A DNA stretch of 32,898 bases, taken from positions 1-32,898 of the forward strand of contig CAZHVK010000015.1 in assembly GCA_964535955.1 (NCBI GenBank), in the 5' to 3' direction. A program made the position numbers and the translations under genes. Positions within the stretch are counted from its first letter, which is position 1. Every line of letters begins with the position of its first letter. This document shows positions 1-32,898 of this stretch, piece by piece. The notes beneath the pieces were generated by a model, which saw only the letters and a program-made list of their open reading frames with translations, made no database searches and was not told where the DNA came from. The DNA is from an uncultured Methanosarcinales archaeon (GTDB lineage: Archaea; Nanobdellota; Nanobdellia; Woesearchaeales; CAXGTL01).

Positions 1-1034
1 TGACCAGTATGCATTGCTTCAAACAAAACTTCTGCTTCTTTTTGCCTTCTTATTTCTCCAACAATTATCCTATCAGGTCTCATTCTTAATGAATTCACAA
101 CAAGATCAAGCATAGTAACTTCACCTTTACCTTCAGGATTAGGCATCCGAGTTTCCATAGGAACCCAATGAAGTGTATCAGGCAGCTGCAGTTCTCTAGT
201 ATCTTCAATTGAAATAATTCTTTGGTTTGGTGGAAGAAAATTAGCAAGAACATTCATCATAGATGTTTTACCAGAACCAGTACCACCAGCAACCAATATT
301 GACAACTCATGCTGCATTGCCAGCCATAACAAAGCAGCACCTTCATAAGATATAGTTTTTGCTTTTATAAAATCAGTTATTGTCCACGGCCTTGTAGCGA
401 ACTTTCTAATAGTGATTGTATTTCCAAAAGAAGAAATAGGATTTAATGTAGCATTAACTCTGTCCCCTGTCTTAAGATGAGCATCCATTAAAGGTTCAAG
501 AACAGTTATTTGTTTTCCAACATCCTTACCAATCATTGTTGAATAATGTCTGATCTGATTTTCTGATTTAAGAAAAATATTAGACTTAAGCCATCCTTGT
601 TTTTTGTGATAAACCCAAAGAGGATCTTTGGCATTATTAATAACAAGCTCCTCCAAATTAGGATCTCTTAAAAGGATCTCTATATTACCTAAACCAATAT
701 TTTGTTGCACAACATAAGTCACTAATAATCTTAAAGATTTGTCATCTATGTTAGGAAAATATTTTTTAATCAAAATTTTAATTTCATGCTTAAACTTTTG
801 TTCTACACCTTTTACACCTTCTGGCCCTCCTAACTCTGTTTTACCTAAACTTAAAGAAGAAATAAAGTCTTCTCTAACCCTTTTCAAAACAAGATTAGTT
901 GCCTTTGATATATTTAAAATAGAAATATTATAAGTTGGTACAAACTCATCACTATACTGAACAATTTTAACATTTACAACCATTTCATCTAATTTTATGT
1001 CGTATGTATCGAGTAATTTAGCGTTTCTTTCCAT
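1..1034 (-). CDS. Type II/IV secretion (VirB11/CpaF/FlaI-like) ATPase, runs off the left edge
   Basis: Absent from the ORF track. Manual translation from ATG 1034 (MERNAKLLDTY...) gives Walker A AGGTGSGKTS, SIEDTREL and LRMRPDRIIVGEIRR...EAMHTGH. Confidence 0.93.
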   Translation of the reverse strand, partial: MERNAKLLDTYDIKLDEMVVNVKIVQYSDEFVPTYNISILNISKATNLVLKRVREDFISSLSLGKTELGGPEGVKGVEQKFKHEIKILIKKYFPNIDDKSLRLLVTYVVQQNIGLGNIEILLRDPNLEELVINNAKDPLWVYHKKQGWLKSNIFLKSENQIRHYSTMIGKDVGKQITVLEPLMDAHLKTGDRVNATLNPISSFGNTITIRKFATRPWTITDFIKAKTISYEGAALLWLAMQHELSILVAGGTGSGKTSMMNVLANFLPPNQRIISIEDTRELQLPDTLHWVPMETRMPNPEGKGEVTMLDLVVNSLRMRPDRIIVGEIRRQKEAEVLFEAMHTG

Positions 1035-1044
1035 TTTTCATCAC

Positions 1045-3381
1045 TTATGTTTTTGCTTTATTAGATTCAAAATTAATTTTATCTAAAAACAATTTTGCTT
1101 CAGTATTATCAGGGTCCAATTCAAGAATAGTATAAATTTCTTGTAATGCTGAATCAAAGTTTTGATTATGCATATATTTCTTTAATCGGGATTTTTTAGC
1201 AGAAATCATTTTATTGACAATAGAATCCTTGAATTTATCTTCACGAAGATTTTTGATCTCAATTAACTTATCACTAGCTTTCCTATCCCTAGGGTTAAGT
1301 CTTAAATAAGCTTCTAAGGCTCTCACTGCAGTTGTATAATCTCTTTCCCTGATATTCTTCAATGCTGCTTTGTGAAGTTGTTTTGATTTTTTCAGCTTAA
1401 ACATTGCATCTATCTTTGCTCTTTCTTCTTCTTCTGTGTCCAGAGATGTTATACGATGTTTAGCTTCTGGAATAGGCATAATTATCCTTGGACTCTGTCT
1501 AAAATCATGCATTGCTGGTTTTTTCTTTTCTGATTCTTGTTTCTTAACCTTTAAATCTTCTAAATGTAGTTTTTCTGCATACTTATCATAATATTGTTTA
1601 ATAAACTTAAGAATTTTCACAAAGCCATAACAATTTTTTTGAGCAGATACGAAATTATGATTAATAAACTTAAGAACAAACCTCAATCCCCTCATATCTG
1701 ATGCATTATAATATTTATTAAGACTAAGCGCAGCTTGATAAAGCCTGTATATTTCAAAAACTTTCCTAATCTCTTGTTTTAACAAGAACTTTTTATTAAC
1801 AAGATACAATGGCAGCTCATTATAAAGTGAATAGATATTATTATAGATCTGACCAATCAATGAAAACTGGTTACTATCTACAATCTGATGAGCACTTACA
1901 AGTAAATCAAGCAGTTTAAGATATCTTGTCTTAACATAAGGACTAAGTTCTCCTAACTCCACAAAATCTTTTCCAGACAAAACATCGTAATACAATTTAT
2001 AAACTTTTTTCCTTACTTCAAGTTTAACAGGGTCAAAACCTGTAGGGAATGTATTATACTTATCAATGATCTGTCTATAAAGATCATAAGCTACATTAAA
2101 ATCTTTATTATTATGAGCAGCCTGTGCTTCATCTATAAGATGGTTGATATTCAATGATCCTTGTTTAATTATTTGAATAGACACATACTTCTTAAGTTCT
2201 ATCAATTGTTTATATGACTTTAACAGCATGTTTTGGGCATGATTGTACTCTTTGGAAAAAGCTTTTGGCATTTTTTCAAATATAGCTCTTGCTTCATTAA
2301 AAGATTTCACACCATTTTCAATATCTCTATTCTTCATATAATCATGCGCATATTTCAGCAGCTGTTTAATCGTATTAATTTTTTCTAAGATATCTTGTCT
2401 TAATCTTGACTTTTTATCAACCATTAACTGCCGATATATATTAATCATTTTTTCTTGAATATCTAACTTTTGATCTAAGAATCCAGGCGGTAACGAACTA
2501 TAAATTTGTTTTAGATCTCCATAAGTTGCAATCGCATTCTCAATATTCCCTTTAGCAATAAATGATTCAATATTAAGAACCAAACCTAATATTTGTCTTG
2601 TTTTTACTTGCATATCTTTTTCATTTAATTGATTTGTAATAGATGACAATCTTTGAAAAAACTTTAATATGCCTTCTGCTAACTTAGTCTTTTCACCATA
2701 AAAACCATCTGGCATAGAATCATAAGTTGTTTTGATTTGATTATATAACTCAACAGCATCATCAACATTTTTTTTCTTAACAAATACATATCCTTGTTTA
2801 AGTAAATTATTAATCAGAACAGTTCCTTCTTTAATTTGTTTAAATCCTTGCTTTTGCAGTGCAATTGATAACTCATTGTTTAAGTGTATAAGTTCTGTCT
2901 CTATTTCATTCTTTCTTTGAAGAAAGACAATAGGTAATGAATCATATGATTTTTTTACTTGAGAATAAATATTTTTTGCAGCAGAAAAATTACCTTCATT
3001 AATCAAAGACCTTATATGAGTGAGAGACAGATTTATGTCTGTTTCTTCTGGAGCAATTAATTCCTTTCCAACTTTTTCATCTTTACTAGGCAAAGCCTTC
3101 ATTGGTTCTGCTTCTACTTTTAGTTTTTCATCTTTTCCATCAAAAATGACATCATGTTTTCCATCTTTTGTTTGCTTTAGTTCAATAAAGGGTGTTGTCA
3201 AACTATATTTTGTTGCCACAATTCCTTCTTCTTCAAGAACACTTACTAAATTTTCCACAGTAGAAACAACTGTTTTTAACTCCTTAGCAGCCTGTTCCAT
3301 AGAAATTCTTTTTCTTCTTTGTAATAAATCTACAAATGCATCAACATCAGTTAGTGTAACTCCCTCTTTTTTATCTACCAT
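1045..3381 (-). CDS. Large helical-repeat (TPR-like) protein with a putative N-terminal HTH, probably co-transcribed with the ATPase
   Basis: 778-aa ORF with recurring units of about 75 aa (Y..ik..Y..lP.gF...K) and C-terminal TPR-like LRLNPRD and LELDPDN. Ends 10 nt before the ATPase start. Confidence 0.75.
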   Translation of the reverse strand: MVDKKEGVTLTDVDAFVDLLQRRKRISMEQAAKELKTVVSTVENLVSVLEEEGIVATKYSLTTPFIELKQTKDGKHDVIFDGKDEKLKVEAEPMKALPSKDEKVGKELIAPEETDINLSLTHIRSLINEGNFSAAKNIYSQVKKSYDSLPIVFLQRKNEIETELIHLNNELSIALQKQGFKQIKEGTVLINNLLKQGYVFVKKKNVDDAVELYNQIKTTYDSMPDGFYGEKTKLAEGILKFFQRLSSITNQLNEKDMQVKTRQILGLVLNIESFIAKGNIENAIATYGDLKQIYSSLPPGFLDQKLDIQEKMINIYRQLMVDKKSRLRQDILEKINTIKQLLKYAHDYMKNRDIENGVKSFNEARAIFEKMPKAFSKEYNHAQNMLLKSYKQLIELKKYVSIQIIKQGSLNINHLIDEAQAAHNNKDFNVAYDLYRQIIDKYNTFPTGFDPVKLEVRKKVYKLYYDVLSGKDFVELGELSPYVKTRYLKLLDLLVSAHQIVDSNQFSLIGQIYNNIYSLYNELPLYLVNKKFLLKQEIRKVFEIYRLYQAALSLNKYYNASDMRGLRFVLKFINHNFVSAQKNCYGFVKILKFIKQYYDKYAEKLHLEDLKVKKQESEKKKPAMHDFRQSPRIIMPIPEAKHRITSLDTEEEERAKIDAMFKLKKSKQLHKAALKNIRERDYTTAVRALEAYLRLNPRDRKASDKLIEIKNLREDKFKDSIVNKMISAKKSRLKKYMHNQNFDSALQEIYTILELDPDNTEAKLFLDKINFESNKAKT

Positions 3382-3520
3382 ATATATACCACCCTAGCTT
3401 TTATATTATTTTATATATATAAAGCATTTATAAATGTTACTATTTTTATATATGAAATACTATATAAAACAAAAGATAAACCAAAACACTAATATACATA
3501 TACATCATCACACATACAAC

Positions 3521-4363
3521 ATGCAAAAATCAATACAAAAATTACAAGAAATCACAGCACATGATAACATAATTCTAACAAATAGAGGCAATACTGCGAT
3601 TAGATTAGCTTTAAAATATGTAAAAGAATTGAATAAAGATAATGATAAGAGGATGATATTTATTCAAGATCAAGGTGGTTGGATGTCTTATCACAAGTAT
3701 ACTGAAAAATTAAAATTACAAAAATTCGATCTTCAGACAACTTTTGGTGTGCTAAAACCATATCAATTAGAAAAATCATTAAAAAAATACAATAATTTTG
3801 CAGCAATCATTTATCAAAATCCAGCTGGTTATTATGCTGATCAGCCGTATAAAGAAATATATGAAATCTGTAAAAAATATAATATTGTGTGCATACTTGA
3901 TGTTACTGGTTGTATAGGATTGGACAAATTTGGAAATTATGCTGACATTCTAGTCTGCAGTTTTGGTGAATCAAAGCCAATTGATCTAGGTTATGGTGGT
4001 TTTATAAGTTTCAAAGAAGCAAAAGCAGCTGAACAATGTAATTATAAATTAGAAGAACAAGATAAAGAACTTAATGCAAAAATAATAAAAAATCTTCCAG
4101 ATAAAATAGACAAATTAGGTACTCGGTATGGTAAACTTTTCACAGAAGTTCATAAAGTAAAAACAGATTTAGCAAAATTCAAGATACTGCACAAAGACAA
4201 GAAAGGAATTAATGTTGTTGTCATGTTTAGAAATGATAAAGAAAAACAAAAGATCATTGATTACTGTAAAAAGAACAAATATGAGTTTACAGAATGTCCT
4301 CGATATATTCGGGTAAATACCAAGGCTATTTCTATTGAAGTAAAAAGAATAAAGACTGATTAA
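3521..4363 (+). CDS. DegT/DnrJ/EryC1/StrS-like PLP-dependent aminotransferase-fold protein
   Basis: Motifs TNRGNTAI, ILDVTGCIG and SFGESKPIDLGYGGFI (PLP Lys). Start 3521 is preferred because the 3434 extension is low-complexity; the start remains uncertain. Confidence 0.7.
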   Translation: MQKSIQKLQEITAHDNIILTNRGNTAIRLALKYVKELNKDNDKRMIFIQDQGGWMSYHKYTEKLKLQKFDLQTTFGVLKPYQLEKSLKKYNNFAAIIYQNPAGYYADQPYKEIYEICKKYNIVCILDVTGCIGLDKFGNYADILVCSFGESKPIDLGYGGFISFKEAKAAEQCNYKLEEQDKELNAKIIKNLPDKIDKLGTRYGKLFTEVHKVKTDLAKFKILHKDKKGINVVVMFRNDKEKQKIIDYCKKNKYEFTECPRYIRVNTKAISIEVKRIKTD

Positions 4364-4418
4364 GAAAAGAATATAATGTCAATTTATCAATTGGAAAGTT
4401 CGAACGAACAATGCACAG

Positions 4419-4615
4419 ACCTTAAGTCGGCTTCATCCAATAAATCCATCTGTGCTGTCAGAAATACAGAGTATTTCTGATCATGCTCATAAATGCTCCA
4501 CATTTATGACACGTGTATGCCTATGTTTGTTTGGCAAACATGGCATGGCCAGATGAAGTTTTATGAATGTAATGAGTAAAACGTAATAGGATTTTTGGAT
4601 GGAGCACCTTAAGTC
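4419..4615. mobile_element. MITE-like or highly structured intergenic element flanked by 10-bp direct repeats
   Basis: ACCTTAAGTC at 4419-4428 and 4606-4615. Imperfect terminal inverted repeats GCTTCATCCAATAAATCC (4430-4447) and GGATTTTTGGATGGAGC (4589-4605). Internal hairpins at 4458-4480, 4487-4509 and 4517-4546. Confidence 0.5.
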
Positions 4616-4657
4616 AAAAGATTTATATATACCTAAACCAATAATAACATTATCAAC

Positions 4658-6569: not shown

Positions 6570-7581
6570 TCATTTCCATGAAACCTCTACCTCATCAGTT
6601 CTCCAATAAGGCAAAACCTTTGTATGTTTCACATCTTTAATCTTTCTCATTGCATTATATTCAAGAATACCTTGCCATGCAATCATTGCAGCAGCATCAA
6701 TCAAGAACTGTGGCTCTGGTATAAAACATTTAGCATCTCTTTCATAACACATTAACTTAGCCATCTCTTGCAGATGAAGATTACATGCTACACCACCGCC
6801 TAACAATAATTCATCTTTACCACAATGCGCCATTGCTCGTTCAGCAACTTCAAGCAGCATTGCAAAACATGTTTCTTGCAATGAAAAACATAGATCTTCT
6901 TTAGTATATTTACCAGAATCAAACTTTTGCTTTAGATTAGTTAGGATGCCACCAAATGAAACATCCATTCCTTTCACCACATATGGAATCTCGATAAGAT
7001 TTTTACCTTTAATAGCTAATTCATAAACTTTTGGTCCACCTGGAAAACCTAAGCCAATATACCTAGCAAAAGTATCCAAAAAATTACCAGCACCAATGTC
7101 AAGTGTTTCACCAAATATCCTATACTTGCCTCCTTCTAATGCAATCACTTGAGTATTTGCACCTGATGCATAAAGCAGCACAGGATCTTTTGCACCTGTC
7201 ATTGCTTTGCCAATTGTCAAATGTGCAATGCAATGATTAACACCAACTAATGGAACTTTTAATTTCAAAGAAATATACCGAGCAATAAATGCACCTATCT
7301 TCAGCATGTGCCCGATTCCTGGTCCTCTTGAAAAAGAAACAAGATTTATATCTATCCACTTTAATCCACTCTTATCAAGAGCTTCTTTCAAAACCTTATC
7401 ACAACATTCTACATGATGATCAACAACTTCAACAGGTTTCATTCCACCTTTTTTTGTGATAAAACTATCTCTAACATTAGAATACACTTTTTTTTGATCA
7501 TCCATTATTGCTACACCGAATGTATCTCTGCCTTTAGAGTGCAGTACTTTCGATGCCTAAACAGATTAGTTTTTTTGGCAT
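6570..7581 (-). CDS. kae1: KEOPS tRNA N6-threonylcarbamoyltransferase Kae1; two exons, 7581-7539 and 7525-6570 (332 aa if spliced)
   Basis: Motifs RGPGIG, VNHCIAHL, ASGANTQ, GETLDIGAGNFLD and GGVACN. The N-terminus MPKKLICLGIESTA-H-TFGVAI is restored only by removing 13 nt. The TATA box at 7612 is 31 nt before ATG 7581. Confidence 0.95.
7526..7538 (-). other. Putative 13-nt BHB/BHL-type mRNA intron in kae1 (UCUAAAGGCAGAG)
   Basis: Exon-exon helix with 11 of 12 pairs, a 3-nt AGA bulge, a 4-bp CUGC/GCAG helix and a 9-nt loop. Cuts at AC|U and AG|A rebuild the His codon CAU. The unspliced frame reaches TAA at codon 16. Confidence 0.85.
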
Positions 7582-7605: not shown

Positions 7606-7612
7606 TTATAAA
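7606..7612 (-). promoter_or_regulatory. Archaeal TATA box of the leaderless kae1 transcript
   Basis: TTTATAA with an A-rich BRE-like region upstream. The 29-31 nt TATA-to-ATG spacing is the same at 6260/6291, 8813/8843, 14251/14280, 16805/16836 and 24094/24125. Confidence 0.7.
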
Positions 7613-8842: not shown

Positions 8843-10753
8843 ATGCTCACAGCAGAAGAACTTATCAATAAAGTACTTGAATATAATCCAAAAGCACATG
8901 TTTCTTTAATCAGAAAAGCATATGATTTCTCAAAACAAGAACATGGTGAACAGAAACGTGATTCAGGTGAACCATATTTTGAACATTGTGTTGCAACAGC
9001 AGAAATCCTTATAGAAATGAAACTAGATTCATCAACAATATCAGCAGGTTTATTGCATGATGTTATTGAAGATACAAAGATCAGATCACACACAATTGAA
9101 GAAGAATTTGGAAAAGAAATCCTTGACTTAGTACAAGGAGTTACAAAAATAAGAAAGATTGACATTGGTGAAACAGAAGAAAGAAAAGCTGCTACTGTTA
9201 GAAAGATATTATTAGCAACATCAAAAGATATAAGAGTTATTCTAATCAAATTAGCAGATAGACTTCATAACATGAGAACATTAAAATTTAAACAAGAAAA
9301 AGTACAAAAAAAGATTGCACAAGAAAGTCTTGAAATATATGCACCTGTTGCACACAAACTAGGGATGTACAAAATAAAATCAGAAATAGAAGATTTATCA
9401 TTAAGATATCTTCATCCAAACATTTATCAAGATATTAAAAAGAAAATAGCAGAAAAAAAAGATGAAAGACAAGAAAGAGTTAATAGAATAATGAGTATAA
9501 TAAGAGAAAAATTAAAAGAATCAGGAGTCCAATTTGTACACATCTATGGAAGAGCAAAAACATTTTATTCAATATATAGAAAACTTGATAGAAAAGGTGG
9601 TCATTTTGAAGACATTTATGATTTGATTGCTATTAGAGTTATCACCAAAATAAAAGAAGACTGTTACAGAGTTTTAGGAGTCATACATTCTAATTGGAAA
9701 TATTTAAAACAGGAATTTGAAGATTTTATCGCAAATCCTAAACCAAATGGTTATCAAAGTCTTCACACTGCAATCCTATTTGAAAAAAAACCAATTGAAA
9801 TACAAATAAGAACAGCAGACATGCACGTTGAAGCAGAAGAAGGTATTGCAGCACACTGGAGATATAAAGGAACAGAAAGAGACAAAAGATTTGACAGAAA
9901 AATAGCTTGGTTAAAACAATTCCTCGACTGGCAAAGAACATCAACAACAGCAAAAGATTTAATTGAAACAGTAAAGATTGACTTATTTAAAGATGAAATC
10001 ATAGTTTTCACACCCAAAGGTGATCCAATCGCATTACCAGAAGGTTCTACACCAATTGACTTTGCATATGAAATTCATTCAGAAATAGGTGACAAGTGTG
10101 CAAGATCAAAAGTCAATAATATACTAGTAAGTTTATCACACCAACTTAATAGCGGCGACGTTGTTGAGATCATGACACAAAACAATGCAAAACCATCCAG
10201 GCAGTGGTTAACATTTGCAAAAACAAACCATGCAAAAGCAAAGATTAGACAAGCTTTAGGAATACAATTTGATGATAGAAGAGTAAAAAAATATGAAGAA
10301 GGGTCCAAAAAAGATTTAGAAAAAGAAATAATTGTTGAAAAAGAAACAAAACCAAACATAAGATTATCAAGATGTTGTGGAGTTAATATTGGTGAACCAA
10401 TAATAGGATTTAAAACAAAAGACAAAAAAATAGCGATTCATGCACAGGATTGTCCAAATGTGGATTCAATGCTTAATCTTAAAAGAGTAATTGTAAGCTG
10501 GAAAAAAAAGAATAAAGAACAAAACATAAAAAAATTAGTTATTACTGTCAGAGACAGACTAGGATTATTAGCAGACATATTAAATATAGTAACAGTCTCA
10601 AAAATGAACATAAAAAGTATAAACTCAGAACCAAAAAAACAAAATATCCAAATAAATATGAATCTAGAAATAACAAATGAAGAAAATTTTAAAAAACTAG
10701 TTAATTATATTAAAGGGATACCAGGAATTGTTGGTATTAATGTTATGGGGTGA
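8843..10753 (+). CDS. rel: Long RelA/SpoT homologue, (p)ppGpp synthetase/hydrolase (HD-SYNTH-TGS-ZFD-ACT)
   Basis: Motifs RDSGEPYFEH, LLHDVIEDT, KLADRLHNMRT, GRAKTFYSIYRK, PKPNGYQSLHT, EIQIRT, TPIDFAYEIHS, RCC...H..DC and ACT DRLGLLADI. Confidence 0.95.
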   Translation: MLTAEELINKVLEYNPKAHVSLIRKAYDFSKQEHGEQKRDSGEPYFEHCVATAEILIEMKLDSSTISAGLLHDVIEDTKIRSHTIEEEFGKEILDLVQGVTKIRKIDIGETEERKAATVRKILLATSKDIRVILIKLADRLHNMRTLKFKQEKVQKKIAQESLEIYAPVAHKLGMYKIKSEIEDLSLRYLHPNIYQDIKKKIAEKKDERQERVNRIMSIIREKLKESGVQFVHIYGRAKTFYSIYRKLDRKGGHFEDIYDLIAIRVITKIKEDCYRVLGVIHSNWKYLKQEFEDFIANPKPNGYQSLHTAILFEKKPIEIQIRTADMHVEAEEGIAAHWRYKGTERDKRFDRKIAWLKQFLDWQRTSTTAKDLIETVKIDLFKDEIIVFTPKGDPIALPEGSTPIDFAYEIHSEIGDKCARSKVNNILVSLSHQLNSGDVVEIMTQNNAKPSRQWLTFAKTNHAKAKIRQALGIQFDDRRVKKYEEGSKKDLEKEIIVEKETKPNIRLSRCCGVNIGEPIIGFKTKDKKIAIHAQDCPNVDSMLNLKRVIVSWKKKNKEQNIKKLVITVRDRLGLLADILNIVTVSKMNIKSINSEPKKQNIQINMNLEITNEENFKKLVNYIKGIPGIVGINVMG

Positions 10754-24124: not shown

Positions 24125-25852
24125 ATGAACAGCCTAAACAAATTATGTAAAGAAATACTTAAAGAATTAGATAATTCTAAAACTATAAATCAACAACAAC
24201 TAAACAAATTAAAACTAAGAGTAATAAGAAAAATAAAAGGTACAAAAATACCAAGCAATATAGAAATACTAAACAATGCAACACAACAACAAAGAAAAAA
24301 ATACAAAAACATCCTAACAATCAAACCAACAAGAACAATGAGTGGTGTAAATGTTATTGCAATAATGACAAAACCAAGAAAATGTCCTCATGCAAAAACA
24401 GGAATAGGGCCATGTACTATGTGCCCTGGAGGACCAAAGTCACACTTTGGAAACATACCACAATCTTACACAGGAAAAGAACCAGCAACATTAAGAGCTC
24501 TAAGAAACAAGTTTGATCCTTATCTCCAGGTTTTCAACAGACTTGAACAATATTGCGCAATGAACAAGTTACCAGAAAAAATAGAATTAATAATAATGGG
24601 AGGAACATTTCCTTCTTATCCAAAAAAGTACCAAGATACATTCATCAAAGATTCATTCAAAGCAATGAATGATTTTTCTAAATTATTTTTTAAGAATAAT
24701 AAATTCCTAGTCGACAAATTTCTAAAATTCTTTGAACTACCAGGCAAAGTAGGTGATCCTAAAAGAACAAAAAACATACAAAAAAAGATATTAAAACTAA
24801 AAAATAAAACAAAGAAAAAAACAAAAAAAAACAAAATCTCTTTAGAACTAGAACAAAAGAAGAATGAAAAATCAAAAATAAAAATAGTAGGTTTAACAAT
24901 AGAAACAAGACCAGACTATGCAAAACTCAAACATTGCAAACAAATGTTAAGACTAGGTGCAACACGAGTAGAGCTAGGTGTACAAACTATCTACAACAAA
25001 GTTTTAAAAAAAATTAAACGTGGTCACACAGTTGAAGATTCGATAAAAGCGACACAGACATTAAAAGACTTAGGTTTTAAAATAAATTATCACATGATGT
25101 TAGGTTTACCAACAGTAACACCAAAACAAGATCTAAATTCACTAAAAACATTATTCACAAACCAAGAATTCAGACCAGACATGTTAAAATTATATCCATG
25201 CATGGTAATGAAAGGAACTCAACTCTACAAACAATGGAAGAAAAAGAAGTTTAAACCTTTAACAACTAAAAAAGCAATCAAAATTATCACAAAATTCAAA
25301 AAAAACATACCAAAATTTGTTAGAATAATGCGTGTACAAAGAGACATCCCTACACACACAACTGAAGCAGGTGTTGACAAAACTAATTTAAGGCAGATGA
25401 TTCAACAGAATCTCGGTAAAACTAAATGTAATTGCATAAGATGCAGAGAACCTGGACGAAGAAACTTAGATCACAAAAATGTAAAATTCTACATTTATGA
25501 ATACAAAGCTTCTGACGGAAAAGAATTTTTCATTTCAGCAGAAGACAAAGTAAATGATTGCATTGTTGGTTTTATTAGAATGAGATTCCCAAGCAAATCA
25601 TTTCTACCTATAATCACAAAAACCAGTGCTTTAATCAGAGAGCTTCATGTCTACGGTGAAACAGAGAAAATAGGTAAAAAAGGCAAGATCCAACACAGAG
25701 GTTATGGTAAAAAACTTCTTAAAATTGCAGAACAAATTGCAAAACAACATAAGAAGAACAAGATCATAATCATCTCAGGCATTGGTGTAAGAGAATATTA
25801 TAAAAAACTAGGATACAAACTACAAACTCCTTACATGGTTAAGAAGGTTTAG
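24125..25852 (+). CDS. elp3: Elp3 tRNA U34 acetyltransferase (radical SAM plus GNAT)
   Basis: Motifs CPH...CTMCPGGP, PQSYTGKEPA, MGGTF, IETRPD, RVELGVQ, RVQRDIP, IRELHVYG, QHRGYG and ISGIGVREYY. Confidence 0.96.
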   Translation: MNSLNKLCKEILKELDNSKTINQQQLNKLKLRVIRKIKGTKIPSNIEILNNATQQQRKKYKNILTIKPTRTMSGVNVIAIMTKPRKCPHAKTGIGPCTMCPGGPKSHFGNIPQSYTGKEPATLRALRNKFDPYLQVFNRLEQYCAMNKLPEKIELIIMGGTFPSYPKKYQDTFIKDSFKAMNDFSKLFFKNNKFLVDKFLKFFELPGKVGDPKRTKNIQKKILKLKNKTKKKTKKNKISLELEQKKNEKSKIKIVGLTIETRPDYAKLKHCKQMLRLGATRVELGVQTIYNKVLKKIKRGHTVEDSIKATQTLKDLGFKINYHMMLGLPTVTPKQDLNSLKTLFTNQEFRPDMLKLYPCMVMKGTQLYKQWKKKKFKPLTTKKAIKIITKFKKNIPKFVRIMRVQRDIPTHTTEAGVDKTNLRQMIQQNLGKTKCNCIRCREPGRRNLDHKNVKFYIYEYKASDGKEFFISAEDKVNDCIVGFIRMRFPSKSFLPIITKTSALIRELHVYGETEKIGKKGKIQHRGYGKKLLKIAEQIAKQHKKNKIIIISGIGVREYYKKLGYKLQTPYMVKKV

Positions 25853-25854
25853 TT

Positions 25855-28545
25855 TTATTTATTCGCATTATAATGCTGTTTAATTTCTTTTGCAGTTAAT
25901 TCTCTTCCATATACCCTAAAATCATCTAATGCACCTACAAATGCAGGAGCACTTCTTGTCTTTGAACCGATTACAGGATAAATATGCCTTCCACTAGCAG
26001 ATGCTGCAGCAAATACTCCTTTTGTTTCAACACCATTAATATAAATACTCATTCTTCTTTGTTTATGATTCCAAGTAACTGCTAAAAAATACCATTTATT
26101 ATTAGGAGGAGCCTTAGTTGAAATAACTGTTGAAATTTGGTGTGCATTGTGTGGTTTTAAAATCAATCTATCAGTTCTAAGATCAAAATTATTGAATTTT
26201 CTAATCATTCTAATTGTTTCAGCATAAATCACACCATCACTCTCTTTCTTGATCCACATAGTAATACTTCCTAAACCTGCACTAATCAAACCTTTCTGTG
26301 CACCTGTTTGTGGTTGAACAGCAGGAGGAAATTGTTTTGCTTTCCCAAACTTACCAGCAACAAAAGGACCAGTATCAGGACAATGTTGCTTTCCAATAGA
26401 ATCTTTTCCATTTCCATCAAACTTATAATGAACATCTAATTGTTCAGAACTTAATTGTGTCTGGACACACGCATTATTCTTACATTTTTTGCCAGCACCA
26501 CAAGCAATATTTCTCTTATCTAAACAAGGATCAGAATCAGAATAAATACATCTTAAAACAGTTTTGCCATCAGCACTGCATGATTTAGGATTATACTTTG
26601 CACAATCATTTTTACAACATTTTGCTATTCCTTTAGGAGTATAACACTTTGCATCTGTACATGTTTCTTGTTTTTTCCAAGAAGTACACCCATTGCTGCC
26701 TTTTTTACAAATCAAAACATCATATTTATTAACAGAATCACACTTAGTTTGTGCTTCTGTGCATTCATCAGTACATGTTGCAACACATTGACCACCTGAA
26801 CATTCTTTACCACCAACACATGTACCACAACTTAGTGTACCACCACAACCATCAGAATGACTACCACATTCCTTGCCTAATTCTGTACAAGTCTTTGGAA
26901 CACAACTAACAACACATCCACCATCTTGACACTTCTCATTTTCACCGCAACCAGTCCATTCACCACCAAATTCTAAACAACCATCTTCATTAGCATCAAC
27001 ACAGCCATAATAACCAGAAAATTCATCATCACATTGTGTTTGTTCTTCAGAACATTCATCAGTACATTCTATCACTTCTTCTTCATCTTCCTCTACTACT
27101 TCCTCCTCTTCACCTTCTGCTTCTCCTTCACTAGTAATAGAAACATCTTGACAAACTTCATCAAGATCAATTGGCCATTTATTCCAGCCAGCTCTTTCTT
27201 CTAAACATGCTTGATAACCAGCACCTTTTGGACATGGTGGAATTGGTGAATTATAACATTTGCCCTCAGAAGTTAATATGTCTAATGGATGTCTGCAGCA
27301 ATCCATACCAGTTTCTTCAGTAATAGTAAATTCATTTTTATCATCACCACAACAATATTCACTATCAACAATCCAATCAAAGCCGCATTTTTCACATGAA
27401 GCTTTATCATTATCAGGTTCTAGTTCTTCTTCAACCTCAACCTTAAAACATTGACCAATCCAATTATCAAGATTACAATCTTCATCAGGAACCCAATCTC
27501 TTGATTTATCTTTTTTTTTACATGTATAAGCTAATAAATAAATAACACCTGTTTTTGTTTCATCAGGGTCAATATTTAATAATTCTTCAACATCACCCCT
27601 TATCCAATTACTAGAACCAGCTGTTTCTTGGCTAAAGTCCATTATTGACCATTCTTCATCATGCTCACTTATCATTAAATATTTTTTATAAACATAATCT
27701 TCATCAACAATACTCAGCTTAACTTGTTCAGATGAACCAGATCCTAACAAAACACTAACATCATCTGGCTCAACATAGAATATACCAGTTGGATCACTTG
27801 GCTGCCATTCACCAAAGTCGCATCCAGTTTGTGATTCTTGTTCAACAACTTCTTCTTCAACCCCAGAATCAAGAGTTTCGACACTTTTAGTTTCTAAAGT
27901 TTTAGCAACAGGTTCTACACAATCTTCATCAACTTCACCATCACAATCATTATCACTACTATCACAAGTTGAATCATCAGATTTATACAATGAATTATGA
28001 TCTAAATAAACATTATCATCACAACCAGGCCAAGTAAGCTCATCAGTGCATGTTTCTTGTGCACCTTTACAAACACCTTGTTGTTTTTCACAATTTTGTT
28101 TTTCACCAGGAGCACAATCTCCAGTTACACAAACACCATTATCACACTTTTGATTAGACTCGCAAGTTGCATATTTTTTATCAAAGCATCCATCAGAACC
28201 TTTTACACAAGTCCATGCCTTATTACCATCACAATCTTTTTGTCCTGATGAACATTCATCAGTACAAGTTTTAATACAAGCACCTTTGTTACACTTTGTT
28301 CCAGATGGACATTGCTTTTTAGATACTTTAAAATTAGGCCAATATTTTGTACAATAATAATCATAAGCAGTATTACCTTTACAATAATCATCTCTATATT
28401 TTCTACCATTTCTCTTAATATAACCACTTTTATCATAATTATTCCTACCATCAGAATCTTCACACTTAGGTGCAGCTTGCACAAAGCCAGCAAACAATAC
28501 TAGAATAATTAAAATACATAAAATGATTATTAGTTTTTTCTTAAT
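25855..28545 (-). CDS. Secreted Cys/acid-rich surface protein with a C-terminal LamG/ConA-like domain
   Basis: The signal peptide KKKLIIILCILIILVLFAGFVQA lies upstream of the track start (28497). Contains DNDCDG and CTDEC repeats and a HYKFDG...WYFLAVTW...IYING...LDDFRVY domain. Confidence 0.85.
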   Translation of the reverse strand: MKKKLIIILCILIILVLFAGFVQAAPKCEDSDGRNNYDKSGYIKRNGRKYRDDYCKGNTAYDYYCTKYWPNFKVSKKQCPSGTKCNKGACIKTCTDECSSGQKDCDGNKAWTCVKGSDGCFDKKYATCESNQKCDNGVCVTGDCAPGEKQNCEKQQGVCKGAQETCTDELTWPGCDDNVYLDHNSLYKSDDSTCDSSDNDCDGEVDEDCVEPVAKTLETKSVETLDSGVEEEVVEQESQTGCDFGEWQPSDPTGIFYVEPDDVSVLLGSGSSEQVKLSIVDEDYVYKKYLMISEHDEEWSIMDFSQETAGSSNWIRGDVEELLNIDPDETKTGVIYLLAYTCKKKDKSRDWVPDEDCNLDNWIGQCFKVEVEEELEPDNDKASCEKCGFDWIVDSEYCCGDDKNEFTITEETGMDCCRHPLDILTSEGKCYNSPIPPCPKGAGYQACLEERAGWNKWPIDLDEVCQDVSITSEGEAEGEEEEVVEEDEEEVIECTDECSEEQTQCDDEFSGYYGCVDANEDGCLEFGGEWTGCGENEKCQDGGCVVSCVPKTCTELGKECGSHSDGCGGTLSCGTCVGGKECSGGQCVATCTDECTEAQTKCDSVNKYDVLICKKGSNGCTSWKKQETCTDAKCYTPKGIAKCCKNDCAKYNPKSCSADGKTVLRCIYSDSDPCLDKRNIACGAGKKCKNNACVQTQLSSEQLDVHYKFDGNGKDSIGKQHCPDTGPFVAGKFGKAKQFPPAVQPQTGAQKGLISAGLGSITMWIKKESDGVIYAETIRMIRKFNNFDLRTDRLILKPHNAHQISTVISTKAPPNNKWYFLAVTWNHKQRRMSIYINGVETKGVFAAASASGRHIYPVIGSKTRSAPAFVGALDDFRVYGRELTAKEIKQHYNANK
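26942..27047. repeat. 106-bp exact repeat shared with 29872-29977
   Basis: Base-by-base comparison. A second exact block of 60 bp links 26754-26813 to 29540-29599. Confidence 0.9.
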
Positions 28546-28586: not shown

Positions 28587-31500
28587 TTAAACATTTGCTT
28601 TATTAGCATTATATTCATTTTTAATTTGAGAATCACTAAACTTAGAATCATATATCTTTAACTCATCTAATGAACCCTTAAAATAAGGACCATCCAACCT
28701 AGAACCACATGTCCAAGCACCACCCAAAAAGACACAACAATTATCAAAAAAACCAAAATTAGCTTTAAATGTTTTCTTCAACTTACCATTAATATAAAAC
28801 TTTGCTGTTGGACCATCAAAAGTCGCAGCATAATGATACCATTTATTCATAGGAGGTTCATAATCTAAAGAATAATCAATTGGCCTTCTCCCGTCAAAAA
28901 ACTTAAACTTGGTTGGATGAAGTACAAATGCCCATGAACCACCACATTGTTTCTTTCTTTGTCTACGCTCAGAATAAATAATCCCATCATTTTCTCTTTT
29001 AACCCAAACCATGATAGTTGCTGCAGATTGACGTTCTAATATAGAATTATCACCAGATCTTCCACCATAAACTCTAACAAATTGATAATCTCCACTTAAT
29101 TTCAAAGCTTTTCCACTAACTCCAGTATCATATGTTCCTCCTGAAGTACCATGGTTTTTATTTCCTGAATAATCTATAGGATTATATCCTTTAAACCCTT
29201 CATCAGTATTCTGTTTCCCATCAAATTTATAATACAATAATAAACCCTCTGTTGGTAGATCTTTAACACACTTACCACTTTTACAGTGTTGTCCACTTGC
29301 ACATTTTCCAGGTCTATAATCAAGACAAGGATCAGAATCAGCATAAATACAATTATCTTTATTTAAACTATCTTTACACTTCCATGCATAAGGTGTACAA
29401 TCATTTTTACAACATTTTGCTATGTCATTAGGAGCATAACACTTTGCATCTGTACAAGTTTCTTGCTTTGTCCAATCAGTACAACCATTGCTTCCTTTTT
29501 TACAGACAAGAACATCATAATTATCACATTTACTTTGGCCTTCTGTGCATTCATCAGTACATGTTGCAACACATTGACCACCTGAACATTCTTTACCACT
29601 TGCACAACTTCCACATGATCCCCCACAACCATTATTACCACATTGTTTACCAATACAATCAGAAACACAAACACATTCACCATTAGAACACTCCTCATCA
29701 CTACCACATGCAACAATATCAATACTTAATTCTAAACATTCATCATCATCATAATTACCACATTCATAATAACCAGTACCAACTTCATTACAAGAAGTCT
29801 CACCGACTAAACATAATTCTTCACAAGGCTCTGCTACAGACACACATGCACCAGCTTCACATACGAAACCGTCACCGCAACCAGTCCATTCACCACCAAA
29901 TTCTAAACAACCATCTTCATTAGCATCAACACAGCCATAATAACCAGAAAATTCATCATCACATTGTGTTTGTTCTTGTGTACATTGATCAGTGCATTGT
30001 TGTAATGGTATTCCACATTTATTTTCTTCACAAACTTCACCAGCACCACAACCAACTAATTCACCACCAAACTCTAAACAACCATTCTCATCATAATCTC
30101 CACATTCATAATAACCATTTTCAACTTCATCACACTGTGTTTCTTGTTCTGCACATGCATCTTCACATGAAGTAACACCTACACAAACTTCATCAAGATC
30201 AATTGGCCATTTATTCCAGCCAGCACGTTCATCTAAACATGCTTGATAACCAACACCTTTTGGACAAGGTGGTATTGGTGAGTTCTGGCACTTACCTTCT
30301 GCAGTCAACACATCTAATGGATGTCTGCAACAATCCATTCCTGTTTCTTCGACAATAGTAAACTCATCTTGATCATCACCACAACAATATTCACTATCAA
30401 CAATCCAATCAAAGCCGCATTTCTCACACGATGCTTGATTATCATCAGGCTCTAGTTCTTCTTCAATCTCAACTTTAAAGCATTGACCAATCCAATCATC
30501 TTCATTACAATCTATTTCAGGTATCCAGTCACGAGACTTATCTTCTTTTTTACATGAATAAACTAATAAATACATTGTTCCTGGTTGTGTTTCATCAGGA
30601 TTAATCTCTATTGATTCTTCAACATCACCTCTTATCCAATTACTTGAACCAACAGCATCCTGGCTAAAGTCCATTATTGTCCAAGCATCATCATCTTCAT
30701 GTATCATAAGATATTTTTTATAAACATAATCTTCACCAACAACACTTAGCTTGACTTGCTCTGATGTTGTTGAACCAAATGCAAGACTTACTGTTTCTGG
30801 CTCAACAAAGAATATTCCAGTTGGATCACTAGGCTGGTATTCTCCAAAGTCGCATCTTGTTGGTATTTCAATACAATCAGGATCAATAGGATCACAATCT
30901 TCTAAACAACCATCACCTTGCTCACAAGTAGGAACTACAATTTCTCCACAATCTTCTGCACAACTTATTTCATCCTCGCCTTCTGAACAAGTATCATCAC
31001 CACAAACAGGTTCTATAATTTGTTCACAAGTACATTCATCACTACATGTAGAACATTCACCTAATTCATCACCATCACATTCTTCACCTTCATCAATCAG
31101 ATTATTACCACATTCAAGAACTTCTTCACATGTTTCTTCATAACTTTCAACACAATAAACTTCATCATAAACAGGAGTATAAGTGCAACCTTGTTTTACT
31201 GGTTCTTCAATTTCAACACAAAGAGGTGGTATTGGATAATTATTATAAATATCTTTTATCATTTCATCTGTTAATGGGCCATTAAATATCTTGAACTCAT
31301 CTAATAATCCCATAAGATTCGAACCGTGGCTAATTGCACCACGATATGCACCAACAGTAGGAAATGTATTCTTAATTGGTCCAGATCTATAACCATAATC
31401 TTCTGTCACTAATTTCTCACCATTAACATAAATCTTCATTCCTTCTGGACCCCAAGTGACTGTGTAGAAATACCATGCAGTAACAGGAGGTTCTGGAGTA

Positions 31501-32898
31501 AAAACTGCATCTGTCATGCCGACCCCATTATGTAATGAAAATTTATTTGAATAAAGTGAAAATGCAGGACTTGGTTTAGGTGCTAGTGCACGACGTTCTG
31601 AATAAACCATTCCATTATTCACTCTTTTAATCCAAGTCATTAAAGTACCAGCAGGAGTTAATGGAGTATTAGGTTCTGAACTGCCAAGATTACCTTTGCT
31701 AACTGCAACAGCATCTGTTTCACCATTAAGCCTTAAACATTTATCTAATACTCCTGTTACATAACTGCCACCAGTTGATCCAGATGTACCACCACCACCT
31801 ACGCCATGACGTTCATAGACAGTAGAATCTTTCACATTACCATATGCACCATCTGGCATAAGTTCATCATCGAATTTATAATATAATTGTAGATCAATGC
31901 AAGCATCAGCATAACAACCATATTCACAAGATATATCTTTGATTTCACAATTAGCTTGTTCATCACAAACAAACTCTTGCAATGTGTTAACATCTTTACA
32001 TTTGAATTGAATACAAGCACCATTTCTGCAACCAAATGTACATTCAATTTGTTTTGTGCTCGGATTATTTTCTTCACATACTCTTTCATTCAATAAATTA
32101 TTAGTAGCATCATAAACATCATCACAAACATCTTCTTGAGTCTTTTTAATTTCATTAGTTGTACGACCTTTGACAAATACATTTAAATCATCTGAATCAG
32201 TACATGTTCTTGGAACACAAGCACATTCTTCTGTACATGCAGAACAAGTTCCTAAATCATTGCCATCACATTCCTCGCCCTTTTCTATAATATTATTACC
32301 ACATTCAGGACAATCATTGTCAAGATTACCATCGCAATCACTATCCAAATTATCACCACAGATTTCTTCAACTGGTTCACCTTTAACACAACTATCTGTT
32401 TCAAAACCATCAACACAACTAAGTTCACCAACAGATGCACAAACACCTACACCACATGTTGTTGCAGTAGAAACATAATCATCATTATATTCACCATCAC
32501 AATCTTCATCAAGCTCATTACAATTATTATCCAAACCATCTGGATTTATCAAATTATTAGTATCATCACAATCATTTGCATTATCAACTAATCCTGTTTC
32601 AGCTGTTATTGCGCATTCAGTTGTTTCAACAGCAGACTCTTGATCACCAAACCCATCACCATCTTTATCTTGATACTTTGTGATTTCAAATCCTTCATCA
32701 ATCACACCATCACAATCTTCATCAATTCCATTACACACAGATTCAACAGCAATATCTACAATATCAATATAATCACATCCATTACATCTTTTACCTAATT
32801 CAGTTGCATGACATTGTCCTTGTTGTTCTGATGTACATTCACAACAACCTTCATTTACTTTATCATCACAATTATTATCTAAATTATCTTCACAATTT
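28587..32898 (-). CDS. Giant Cys/acid-rich surface protein with two LamG-like domains; 5' end lies beyond the window
   Basis: The frame stays open to the right edge (NCEDNLDNNCDD...). Contains CNGIDEDCDG metal-binding repeats, CGNN..E.GEECDG repeats and two YYKFD...LDE.KI domains. Confidence 0.88.
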   Translation of the reverse strand, partial: NCEDNLDNNCDDKVNEGCCECTSEQQGQCHATELGKRCNGCDYIDIVDIAVESVCNGIDEDCDGVIDEGFEITKYQDKDGDGFGDQESAVETTECAITAETGLVDNANDCDDTNNLINPDGLDNNCNELDEDCDGEYNDDYVSTATTCGVGVCASVGELSCVDGFETDSCVKGEPVEEICGDNLDSDCDGNLDNDCPECGNNIIEKGEECDGNDLGTCSACTEECACVPRTCTDSDDLNVFVKGRTTNEIKKTQEDVCDDVYDATNNLLNERVCEENNPSTKQIECTFGCRNGACIQFKCKDVNTLQEFVCDEQANCEIKDISCEYGCYADACIDLQLYYKFDDELMPDGAYGNVKDSTVYERHGVGGGGTSGSTGGSYVTGVLDKCLRLNGETDAVAVSKGNLGSSEPNTPLTPAGTLMTWIKRVNNGMVYSERRALAPKPSPAFSLYSNKFSLHNGVGMTDAVFTPEPPVTAWYFYTVTWGPEGMKIYVNGEKLVTEDYGYRSGPIKNTFPTVGAYRGAISHGSNLMGLLDEFKIFNGPLTDEMIKDIYNNYPIPPLCVEIEEPVKQGCTYTPVYDEVYCVESYEETCEEVLECGNNLIDEGEECDGDELGECSTCSDECTCEQIIEPVCGDDTCSEGEDEISCAEDCGEIVVPTCEQGDGCLEDCDPIDPDCIEIPTRCDFGEYQPSDPTGIFFVEPETVSLAFGSTTSEQVKLSVVGEDYVYKKYLMIHEDDDAWTIMDFSQDAVGSSNWIRGDVEESIEINPDETQPGTMYLLVYSCKKEDKSRDWIPEIDCNEDDWIGQCFKVEIEEELEPDDNQASCEKCGFDWIVDSEYCCGDDQDEFTIVEETGMDCCRHPLDVLTAEGKCQNSPIPPCPKGVGYQACLDERAGWNKWPIDLDEVCVGVTSCEDACAEQETQCDEVENGYYECGDYDENGCLEFGGELVGCGAGEVCEENKCGIPLQQCTDQCTQEQTQCDDEFSGYYGCVDANEDGCLEFGGEWTGCGDGFVCEAGACVSVAEPCEELCLVGETSCNEVGTGYYECGNYDDDECLELSIDIVACGSDEECSNGECVCVSDCIGKQCGNNGCGGSCGSCASGKECSGGQCVATCTDECTEGQSKCDNYDVLVCKKGSNGCTDWTKQETCTDAKCYAPNDIAKCCKNDCTPYAWKCKDSLNKDNCIYADSDPCLDYRPGKCASGQHCKSGKCVKDLPTEGLLLYYKFDGKQNTDEGFKGYNPIDYSGNKNHGTSGGTYDTGVSGKALKLSGDYQFVRVYGGRSGDNSILERQSAATIMVWVKRENDGIIYSERRQRKKQCGGSWAFVLHPTKFKFFDGRRPIDYSLDYEPPMNKWYHYAATFDGPTAKFYINGKLKKTFKANFGFFDNCCVFLGGAWTCGSRLDGPYFKGSLDELKIYDSKFSDSQIKNEYNANKANV

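Follow-up and report, generated by a model that had tools for sequence, protein, structure and literature searches.

A candidate 13-nucleotide relaxed bulge-helix-bulge intron in the coding sequence of kae1 in DPANN-like archaea

Introduction

Endonuclease-spliced introns are almost unknown in archaeal protein-coding genes. In the pertinent passages of two papers (PMC7714728, 2020; PMC10485636, 2023), the only mRNA introns named as belonging to the bulge-helix-bulge (BHB) type are those in the coding sequence of cbf5 of Crenarchaeota and in the 5′ untranslated region (UTR) of HVO_1309, and further archaeal mRNA introns are expected to be found; cbf5 of Crenarchaeota was also the established precedent named, in agreement with these passages, in a preliminary description of the DNA analyzed here. 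This DNA is a stretch of 32,898 nucleotides (nt) of the archaeal contig CAZHVK010000015.1 (hereafter, the window), in which the gene kae1, on the minus strand, is interrupted by a 13-nt insert at positions 7538-7526. Kae1 is the catalytic subunit for the synthesis of the tRNA modification t6A37. The insert is very probably an intron of a relaxed BHB type (the hBH or bulge-helix-loop, BHL, form) within the coding sequence, removed by the tRNA-splicing endonuclease EndA together with the ligase RtcB, and a micro-intron of this kind is most likely present in kae1 of at least three DPANN-like species, namely that of the window and those of two related loci, L032 and L053.

The cbf5 intron of Aeropyrum, Sulfolobus and others resembles the kae1 insert in being short and BHB-like, often relaxed in its motif, located inside the coding sequence of an RNA-modification enzyme, and patchily distributed, with both gains and losses inferred, according to the parts of PMC2738675 and PMC10485636 that describe it. 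The cbf5 intron is, in those parts, cut by EndA, whereas cutting of the kae1 intron is predicted from the sequence. The host gene is also different, and so is the lineage: the organism of the window looks like a DPANN archaeon, close to Woesearchaeota/Nanoarchaeota, rather than a crenarchaeon. The kae1 intron starts 43 nt from the start codon (40 nt in L032) and, at 13-18 nt in the three genes, is near the lower end of the range of 11-175 nt that a passage of PMC2738675 gives for tRNA introns. The HVO_1309 intron of Haloferax volcanii is likewise a BHB-flanked piece of mRNA that is removed by the splicing endonuclease, as demonstrated by circular RNA sequencing (circRNA-seq) and in vitro cleavage in the portion of PMC7714728 devoted to it; unlike the kae1 intron, it is a 5′-UTR intron of 46 nt and interrupts no reading frame. 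In structure, the kae1 insert is similar to the intron at 59/60 of pre-tRNA-Cys from the DPANN archaeon ARMAN-2, with an outer helix, one 3-nt bulge, a helix of 4 base pairs (bp) and a loop where a second bulge would otherwise be (relevant passages of PMC5829648 and PMC12397907), although the host RNA there is a tRNA, not an mRNA. Such hBH/BHL introns are cut only by broad-specificity EndAs, and DPANN EndAs carry an extra L3 loop that is linked to more disrupted tRNA genes, at least in the sections of PMC5829648 that deal with these enzymes; on these grounds, splicing of kae1 is enzymatically plausible.

The preliminary description knew of no intron in kae1. This still holds, in that no report of one was found in full-text searches of the literature (subscription-only papers and supplements may differ), and none appears in the passages on archaeal introns of a 2026 review (PMC13149111) or in those of a 2026 preprint on Asgard tRNA introns. 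The kae1 insert is most likely a new case of a known but very rare kind, an endonuclease-spliced intron in an archaeal coding gene. In HAC1/XBP1, a protein endonuclease excises a small intron at stem-loops of a coding mRNA, a tRNA ligase (RtcB in animals) joins the exons, and the frame changes; the endonuclease there is IRE1 rather than EndA, the splicing is stress-regulated and no BHB motif is involved, and the likeness to kae1 is an analogy only. Splicing of HAC1/XBP1 is mentioned in PMC4090602.

Interruption of the kae1 reading frame

Read from the ATG at 7581, the minus-strand frame is MPKKLICLGIESTA, followed by CTC and the stop codon TAA at 7536-7534. The downstream kae1 frame (ACA TTC GGT GTA ... 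from 7523) is open for 317 codons, up to a stop at 6572-6570. Excision of the 13 nt between 7538 and 7526 (UCUAAAGGCAGAG), which are not a tandem duplication of the flanking sequence, joins C7539 with A7525-U7524 into a His codon, so that the spliced gene comprises 14 + 1 + 317 = 332 codons and encodes a protein of 332 amino acids (aa). Exon 1 (7539..7581, minus strand) would then consist of 43 nt, from ATG 7581 to C7539, that is, 14 codons and the first base of the His codon, and exon 2 (6570..7525, minus strand) of the two bases that finish this codon, the 317 sense codons and the stop.

The conserved N-terminal strand motif (GIE-x-TAH-x-x-G) is contiguous with the rest of Kae1 from the window only once 7538-7526 are removed, and the spliced N-terminus carries GIESTAHTFG, as does the intronless relative P0004 (332 aa, 84% identical). 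The frame break, the restored N-terminal motif and the 332-aa open reading frame (ORF), all of them claimed in the preliminary description, were reproduced from the sequence and by scoring against a hidden Markov model (HMM).

Inserts at the same site in related kae1 genes

The kae1 loci of related archaea (up to ~9 kb each) were collected with one genome per species; 600 stretches matched, representing at least 596 relatives. The 80 best were retained, and all 80 aligned to P0004. Two of these loci, L037 and L039, lack the kae1 N-terminus because of a contig end, leaving 78 that could be scored for interruption. Among these Woesearchaeota/Nanoarchaeota loci, 76 read uninterrupted through the N-terminal motif and two, L032 and L053, are interrupted at exactly the site found in the window. 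The insert in L032 (2535-2548) is 14 nt long and shifts the frame; that in L053 (3960-3977) is 18 nt long and keeps the frame but contains an in-frame TAA. Counting the window, inserts are present in 3 of 79 kae1 genes.

The amino acid identity among the three intron-bearing Kae1 proteins is 61-65%. The L032 insert is that of the window with one extra A, and differences in insert length among the three genes are confined to the loop of the structure described below. Common to all three are the end of exon 1 (...GAAAGUACUGCAC), the end of the intron (GCAGAG) and the start of exon 2 (AUAC). A TAA in the frame of exon 1 occupies nt 3-5 of each insert (7534-7536 in the window, 2537-2539 in L032 and 3962-3964 in L053), so that unspliced mRNA would be read for one extra codon and then stop, the frame-keeping L053 included. 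Thus, of what the preliminary description envisaged for kae1 of related DPANN genomes, inserts at the same position do occur, in two more species and with the same helix and bulge; helix covariation on both sides is not seen in the three sequences, as detailed below.

Fold and predicted splice motif

The minimum-energy fold of 7556-7513 (-15.1 kcal/mol, z about -4.04 to -4.09, with none of 200 shuffles as stable) is the structure drawn in the preliminary description, with two weak pairs added inside the 9-nt loop. The exon-exon helix h is formed by GCAUCGAAAGUA (5′ strand, 7545..7556) and UACAUUCGGUGU (3′ strand, 7513..7524), with 11 of 12 positions paired. In the adjoining central 4-bp helix H, the exonic CUGC (7541..7544) pairs at all four positions with the intronic GCAG (7528..7531). 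The predicted 5′ splice site, AC↓U, between 7539 and 7538, lies in a 9-nt loop (7532..7540) that replaces the 5′ bulge and the inner helix h′, and the predicted 3′ splice site, AG↓A, between 7526 and 7525, lies in a 3-nt bulge, AGA (7525..7527). All these elements are on the minus strand.

The central CUGC/GCAG helix, with 4 of 4 Watson-Crick pairs, and the AGA bulge at the 3′ site are invariant in the window, L032 and L053, and the outer helix has 11, 12 and 11 of 12 pairs, respectively. The three folds have z values of -4.09, -4.28 and -5.06; in no case did any of the 200 shuffles fold equally well. In the three-way alignment, 46 of 48 cells pair, compared to 24-46% when the partner is slid. 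A covariance model built from the three sequences assigns 70-74 bits to the three inserts and at most 23 bits to intronless kae1 sites; it had no strong match in any other gene, with a few weak chance or reverse-strand matches. The strict hBHBh′ form, with a second 3-nt bulge at the 5′ site and an inner helix h′, is not seen in the window and L032, where the 5′ site is in a loop of 9 or 10 nt; it is accordingly a motif of the relaxed hBH/BHL class, which is counted among EndA substrates in PMC5829648. The strict two-bulge motif is accessible to L053, whose loop can form a 3-nt ACA bulge and an AUA/UAU stem; the energy is then -15.1 kcal/mol versus a minimum of -17.3 kcal/mol.

Predicted cuts and the homology-defined junction

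In the passages of PMC12397907 on cleavage, the 2′-OH on the middle nucleotide in the bulge A13-U14-A15 attacks and the scissile phosphate is at A15; hence the cut falls after the second bulge nucleotide. The rule for EndA cutting applied in the preliminary description agrees with this mechanism and gives AC↓U and AG↓A here. In all three genes, cuts placed two nt 3′ of the central helix on each strand are predicted to restore the intact Kae1 frame.

For each gene, all stop-free products of excisions with 65 start positions and 31 lengths were scored against an HMM of 76 intact N-termini. The excision predicted by the rule ranked first, on its own, in all three genes: 68.1 bits for the window, where the next best product reached 58.4, and 47.7 vs. 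39.1 and 57.2 vs. 48.2 bits for the other two (in L053, two adjacent excisions yield an identical product). As a rough estimate, the chance of the motif is ~1.5 × 10−4 per gene, being the product of 3/76 (the fraction of intronless genes with 11 flank pairs) and 1/256 (a random insert pairing with CUGC at the right offset). The weight of the evidence for the predicted intron is in the coincidence of the cut sites with the homology-defined junction in three separate genes.

Conceivably, the ribosome copes with the insert instead, by a programmed +1 frameshift at CUC-UAA-A (yielding ...STALKGRDTFG...), by read-through of the stop or by bypassing of the hairpin. The downstream frame is indeed open back to 7538, so that a +1 shift at the TAA would yield a full-length protein longer by four residues; products in which part of the insert is retained (10-nt excisions) score 50.8-51.5 bits, compared to 68.1 bits for the spliced product; and a stable hairpin surrounds the stop. 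However, inserts of 13, 14 and 18 nt require three different events (a +1 shift, a -1/+2 shift and TAA read-through, respectively), which rules out one shared frameshift mechanism, and bypassing would find no in-frame pair of matching take-off and landing codons (the GCA within the insert is out of frame). Furthermore, the stretch from STA to TFG contains no additional residues in any of the 76 homologues, and what is conserved corresponds exactly to the elements of the endonuclease motif. Such recoding is, in our assessment, very unlikely.

Gene integrity and RNA-level constraint

Exon 2 is open for 317 codons in the window, 321 in L032 and 310 in L053, and encodes the TsaD domain (Pfam PF00814) in each case, with E-values of 5.8 × 10−71, 1.8 × 10−81 and 5.4 × 10−75, respectively. 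Compared to the nearest intronless gene, the ratio of nonsynonymous to synonymous substitution rates (dN/dS) in exon 2 is 0.058 (window vs. L001), 0.084 (L032 vs. L028) and 0.096 (L053 vs. L027), with saturated dS values of 1.45-2.06. By these ratios, exon 2 is under strong purifying selection.

The flanks of the intron site are partly complementary from the encoded peptide alone: in the 76 intronless genes, 4-11 of the 12 flank positions pair (median, 7-8), and 11 pairs are reached in three of them. The three intron-bearing genes, among which dS is saturated, agree in seven codons here, GGC, GAA, AGT, ACT, GCA, CAT and TTC. AGT is used by only 8 and ATC by only 6 of the 76 intronless genes, and the sister genes L001 and L028, with 5 and 8 of 12 pairs, are without the helix-favouring codons. 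The suggestion in the preliminary description that codon choice maintains the helix is borne out by this rare use of AGT and ATC and by the 11-12 pairs of the intron-bearing genes versus the median of 7-8. The partial hairpin built into kae1 mRNA at this site might predispose the gene to intron gain.

The ORF listing of the window shows for kae1 only an ORF of 311 aa (6570..7505, start ATG 7505), to which the TsaD match above was obtained. A further explanation of the insert is that its hairpin is regulatory and that the working protein is this 311-aa form, the N-terminal 21 residues being dispensable. The ATG at 7505 exists and is used by gene callers, and the public protein collection holds the 311-aa form (P0001). 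The missing residues, however, align to the first residues of a solved Kae1: P0004 matches the Pyrococcus abyssi structure 2ivn_A from residue 2 (E = 1.2 × 10−105), so that the N-terminal piece lost by the break belongs to the solved fold. GIESTAHTFG is kept in 58 of the 76 homologues. Exon 2 of L053 is devoid of in-frame ATG, GTG and TTG codons until 4520 (~180 codons), so that only 130 aa are possible without splicing, and in L032 the first in-frame start in exon 2 is a GTG 27 codons in. Gene callers also cut intact genes at this Met. That the 311-aa product is the working protein is therefore extremely unlikely.

The public collection contains the gene of the window only as the truncated P0001, on 7 contigs, which points to a blind spot of annotation; two proteins 86% identical to it are also 311 aa long. 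A short gene call was considered as a sign of an intron and rejected: L001, the contig of P0002 (311 aa), has an intact ORF of 331 aa (279..1274), and P0003 and P0025, examined as further intron cases, have the full-length cluster mates P0121 (331 aa) and P0124. Calls of 310-311 aa arise from intact genes of 327-331 aa when the same internal Met is chosen as the start, and short calls are thus no sign of an intron.

Distribution of the insert and points against splicing

Several observations weigh against an intron spliced by EndA. The nearest relatives of the window gene lack the insert (L001, with 86% aa identity, and P0004 and P0122, with 84%). In a Kae1 tree built without the N-terminal columns, the window groups with L001 (support 100) and L032 with L028 (support 99), i.e. 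the intron-bearing genes are scattered, and at least three changes are needed to account for the distribution. With only three sequences, 0 of 16 pairs change on both sides, and there are two one-sided changes and two single mismatches; the structure is thus backed by conservation, not by covariation. In the window and L032, the 5′ site is in a loop, a form of the motif that needs a broad-specificity EndA, and the canonical two-bulge fold of L053 is 2.2 kcal/mol above the minimum for that sequence. The motif in its loose form is common: with 10 or more of the 12 outer positions paired, it occurs 803 times in 1.25 Mb of strand sequence, compared to 432-465 times in shuffles, and shuffled sequence of that size yields 46-52 hits with at least 11 outer pairs. 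Motif rarity was for this reason rejected as stand-alone evidence; the motif alone proves little. ARAGORN detected 6 tRNA genes in 60 loci (L001-L060), none of them flagged with an intron, and thus there is no local evidence of BHB use; the same program found no tRNA genes in the window, and neither endA nor rtcB was seen there in a Pfam domain search of the window proteins; the kae1 loci likewise contain no endA. Finally, these genomes possibly contain a second, intact kae1 elsewhere.

The lack of the insert in L001, P0004 and P0122, its presence in only 3 of 79 genes and the possible second copy also favour a disabling lesion or artefact, i.e. a kae1 pseudogene, a defective strain variant or an assembly error, from which the insert would never be removed. 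Against such a lesion, the inserts come from three assemblies of distant species (61-65% aa identity) and occupy the identical site, with the same helix and bulge and yet different lengths; exon 2 is stop-free over 310-321 codons with dN/dS of 0.06-0.10; synonymous sites in the flanks are constrained to keep the helix; and the insert does not duplicate its flanks in tandem. Taken together, these data make a lesion or artefact highly improbable.

With regard to the history of the predicted intron, repeated loss, repeated gain or transfer may each underlie the scattered distribution. Because dS is saturated, the direction, gain or loss, cannot be read from the codons of L001 and L028. A single origin of the intron sequence is argued by the central helix, the bulge and the position, which are identical in all three genes.

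Proposed splicing of kae1 mRNA and its implications

Under the proposed mechanism, 12 nt of exon 1 would pair with 12 nt of exon 2 in the kae1 pre-mRNA, and the adjoining exonic CUGC with the intronic GCAG. EndA would then cleave at AC↓U and AG↓A, in each strand two nt to the 3′ side of the central helix, and RtcB would ligate the exons, creating the His codon and the 332-aa Kae1 frame. Unspliced mRNA would yield only a 15-residue peptide, because of the TAA at intron nt 3-5, and Kae1 synthesis, hence t6A, would therefore depend on the tRNA-splicing machinery. A TATA-like TTTATAA, seen by eye at 7606..7612 on the minus strand, 31 nt upstream of ATG 7581, would give a leaderless or near-leaderless kae1 transcript.

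If the proposed splicing takes place, kae1, a universal and essential gene, is the second coding-sequence case and belongs to another phylum than the first, and the tRNA-splicing machinery acts on mRNA outside Crenarchaeota. At 13 nt, the candidate intron is a natural minimal substrate for relaxed-motif recognition, with three natural length variants, and it prompts the question by what route introns of this type arise and disappear.

It is conceivable, albeit doubtful, that the kae1 micro-intron is one case of a wider unannotated class of 13-18-nt endonuclease-spliced introns in DPANN coding genes that are called truncated or frameshifted. A near-identical intron in genes that are only 65% identical would then represent either a mobile BHB intron, gained or transferred repeatedly, or an ancient intron lost many times. 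In this reading, the universal t6A modification would be tied to the tRNA-splicing enzymes, as a check-point between two steps of tRNA maturation. A permissive scan of the window and the 80 loci for BHB motifs combined with ORF repair produced 14,998 motif hits in one run and 10,178 hits with 235 'repairs' in another. Most of the hits examined linked the end of a gene to the following ORF, and the scan is too noisy; the kae1 intron itself, with an exon 1 of only 43 nt, does not pass its test for an upstream ORF.

Other features of the window and the loci

Among the loci, L001, L006-L009, L012, L017, L020, L025, L031, L032 and others are titled 'uncultured Methanosarcinales archaeon' but fall among Woesearchaeota/Nanoarchaeota in the Kae1 tree; these titles look like mislabels. 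In L053, a 418-aa ORF without a Pfam match (2708-3964) runs stop-free and in frame into kae1 exon 1 and ends at the intron TAA, which could reflect a fusion or a coincidence of phase. Some homologues, among them L019 (2595-2642), L028 (3905-3994 and 4478-4525) and L072 (3542-3571), have in-frame, stop-free insertions of 10-30 residues just after the first Kae1 hairpin; these insertions are taken to be protein loop insertions, away from the intron site.

Elsewhere in the window, the ~290 nt at 4364-4657, between a DegT-like ORF and the next gene, contain no ORF longer than 65 aa on either strand and no Rfam match; no Rfam family matched anywhere in the window. Beside the archaeal kae1, the plus strand encodes a 636-aa protein of the RelA/SpoT type (8843-10753; domains HD_4, RelA_SpoT, TGS and ACT), a bacterial-style (p)ppGpp enzyme. 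An Elp3-like protein (24125-25852, plus strand; ELP3_N, radical SAM and GNAT domains) is a second tRNA-modification enzyme in the window. Two giant proteins of 880 and at least 1383 aa are encoded on the minus strand at 25855-28497 and 28587-32738; they are probably surface proteins, since their sole Pfam match is a C-terminal Laminin_G_3/concanavalin-like domain.

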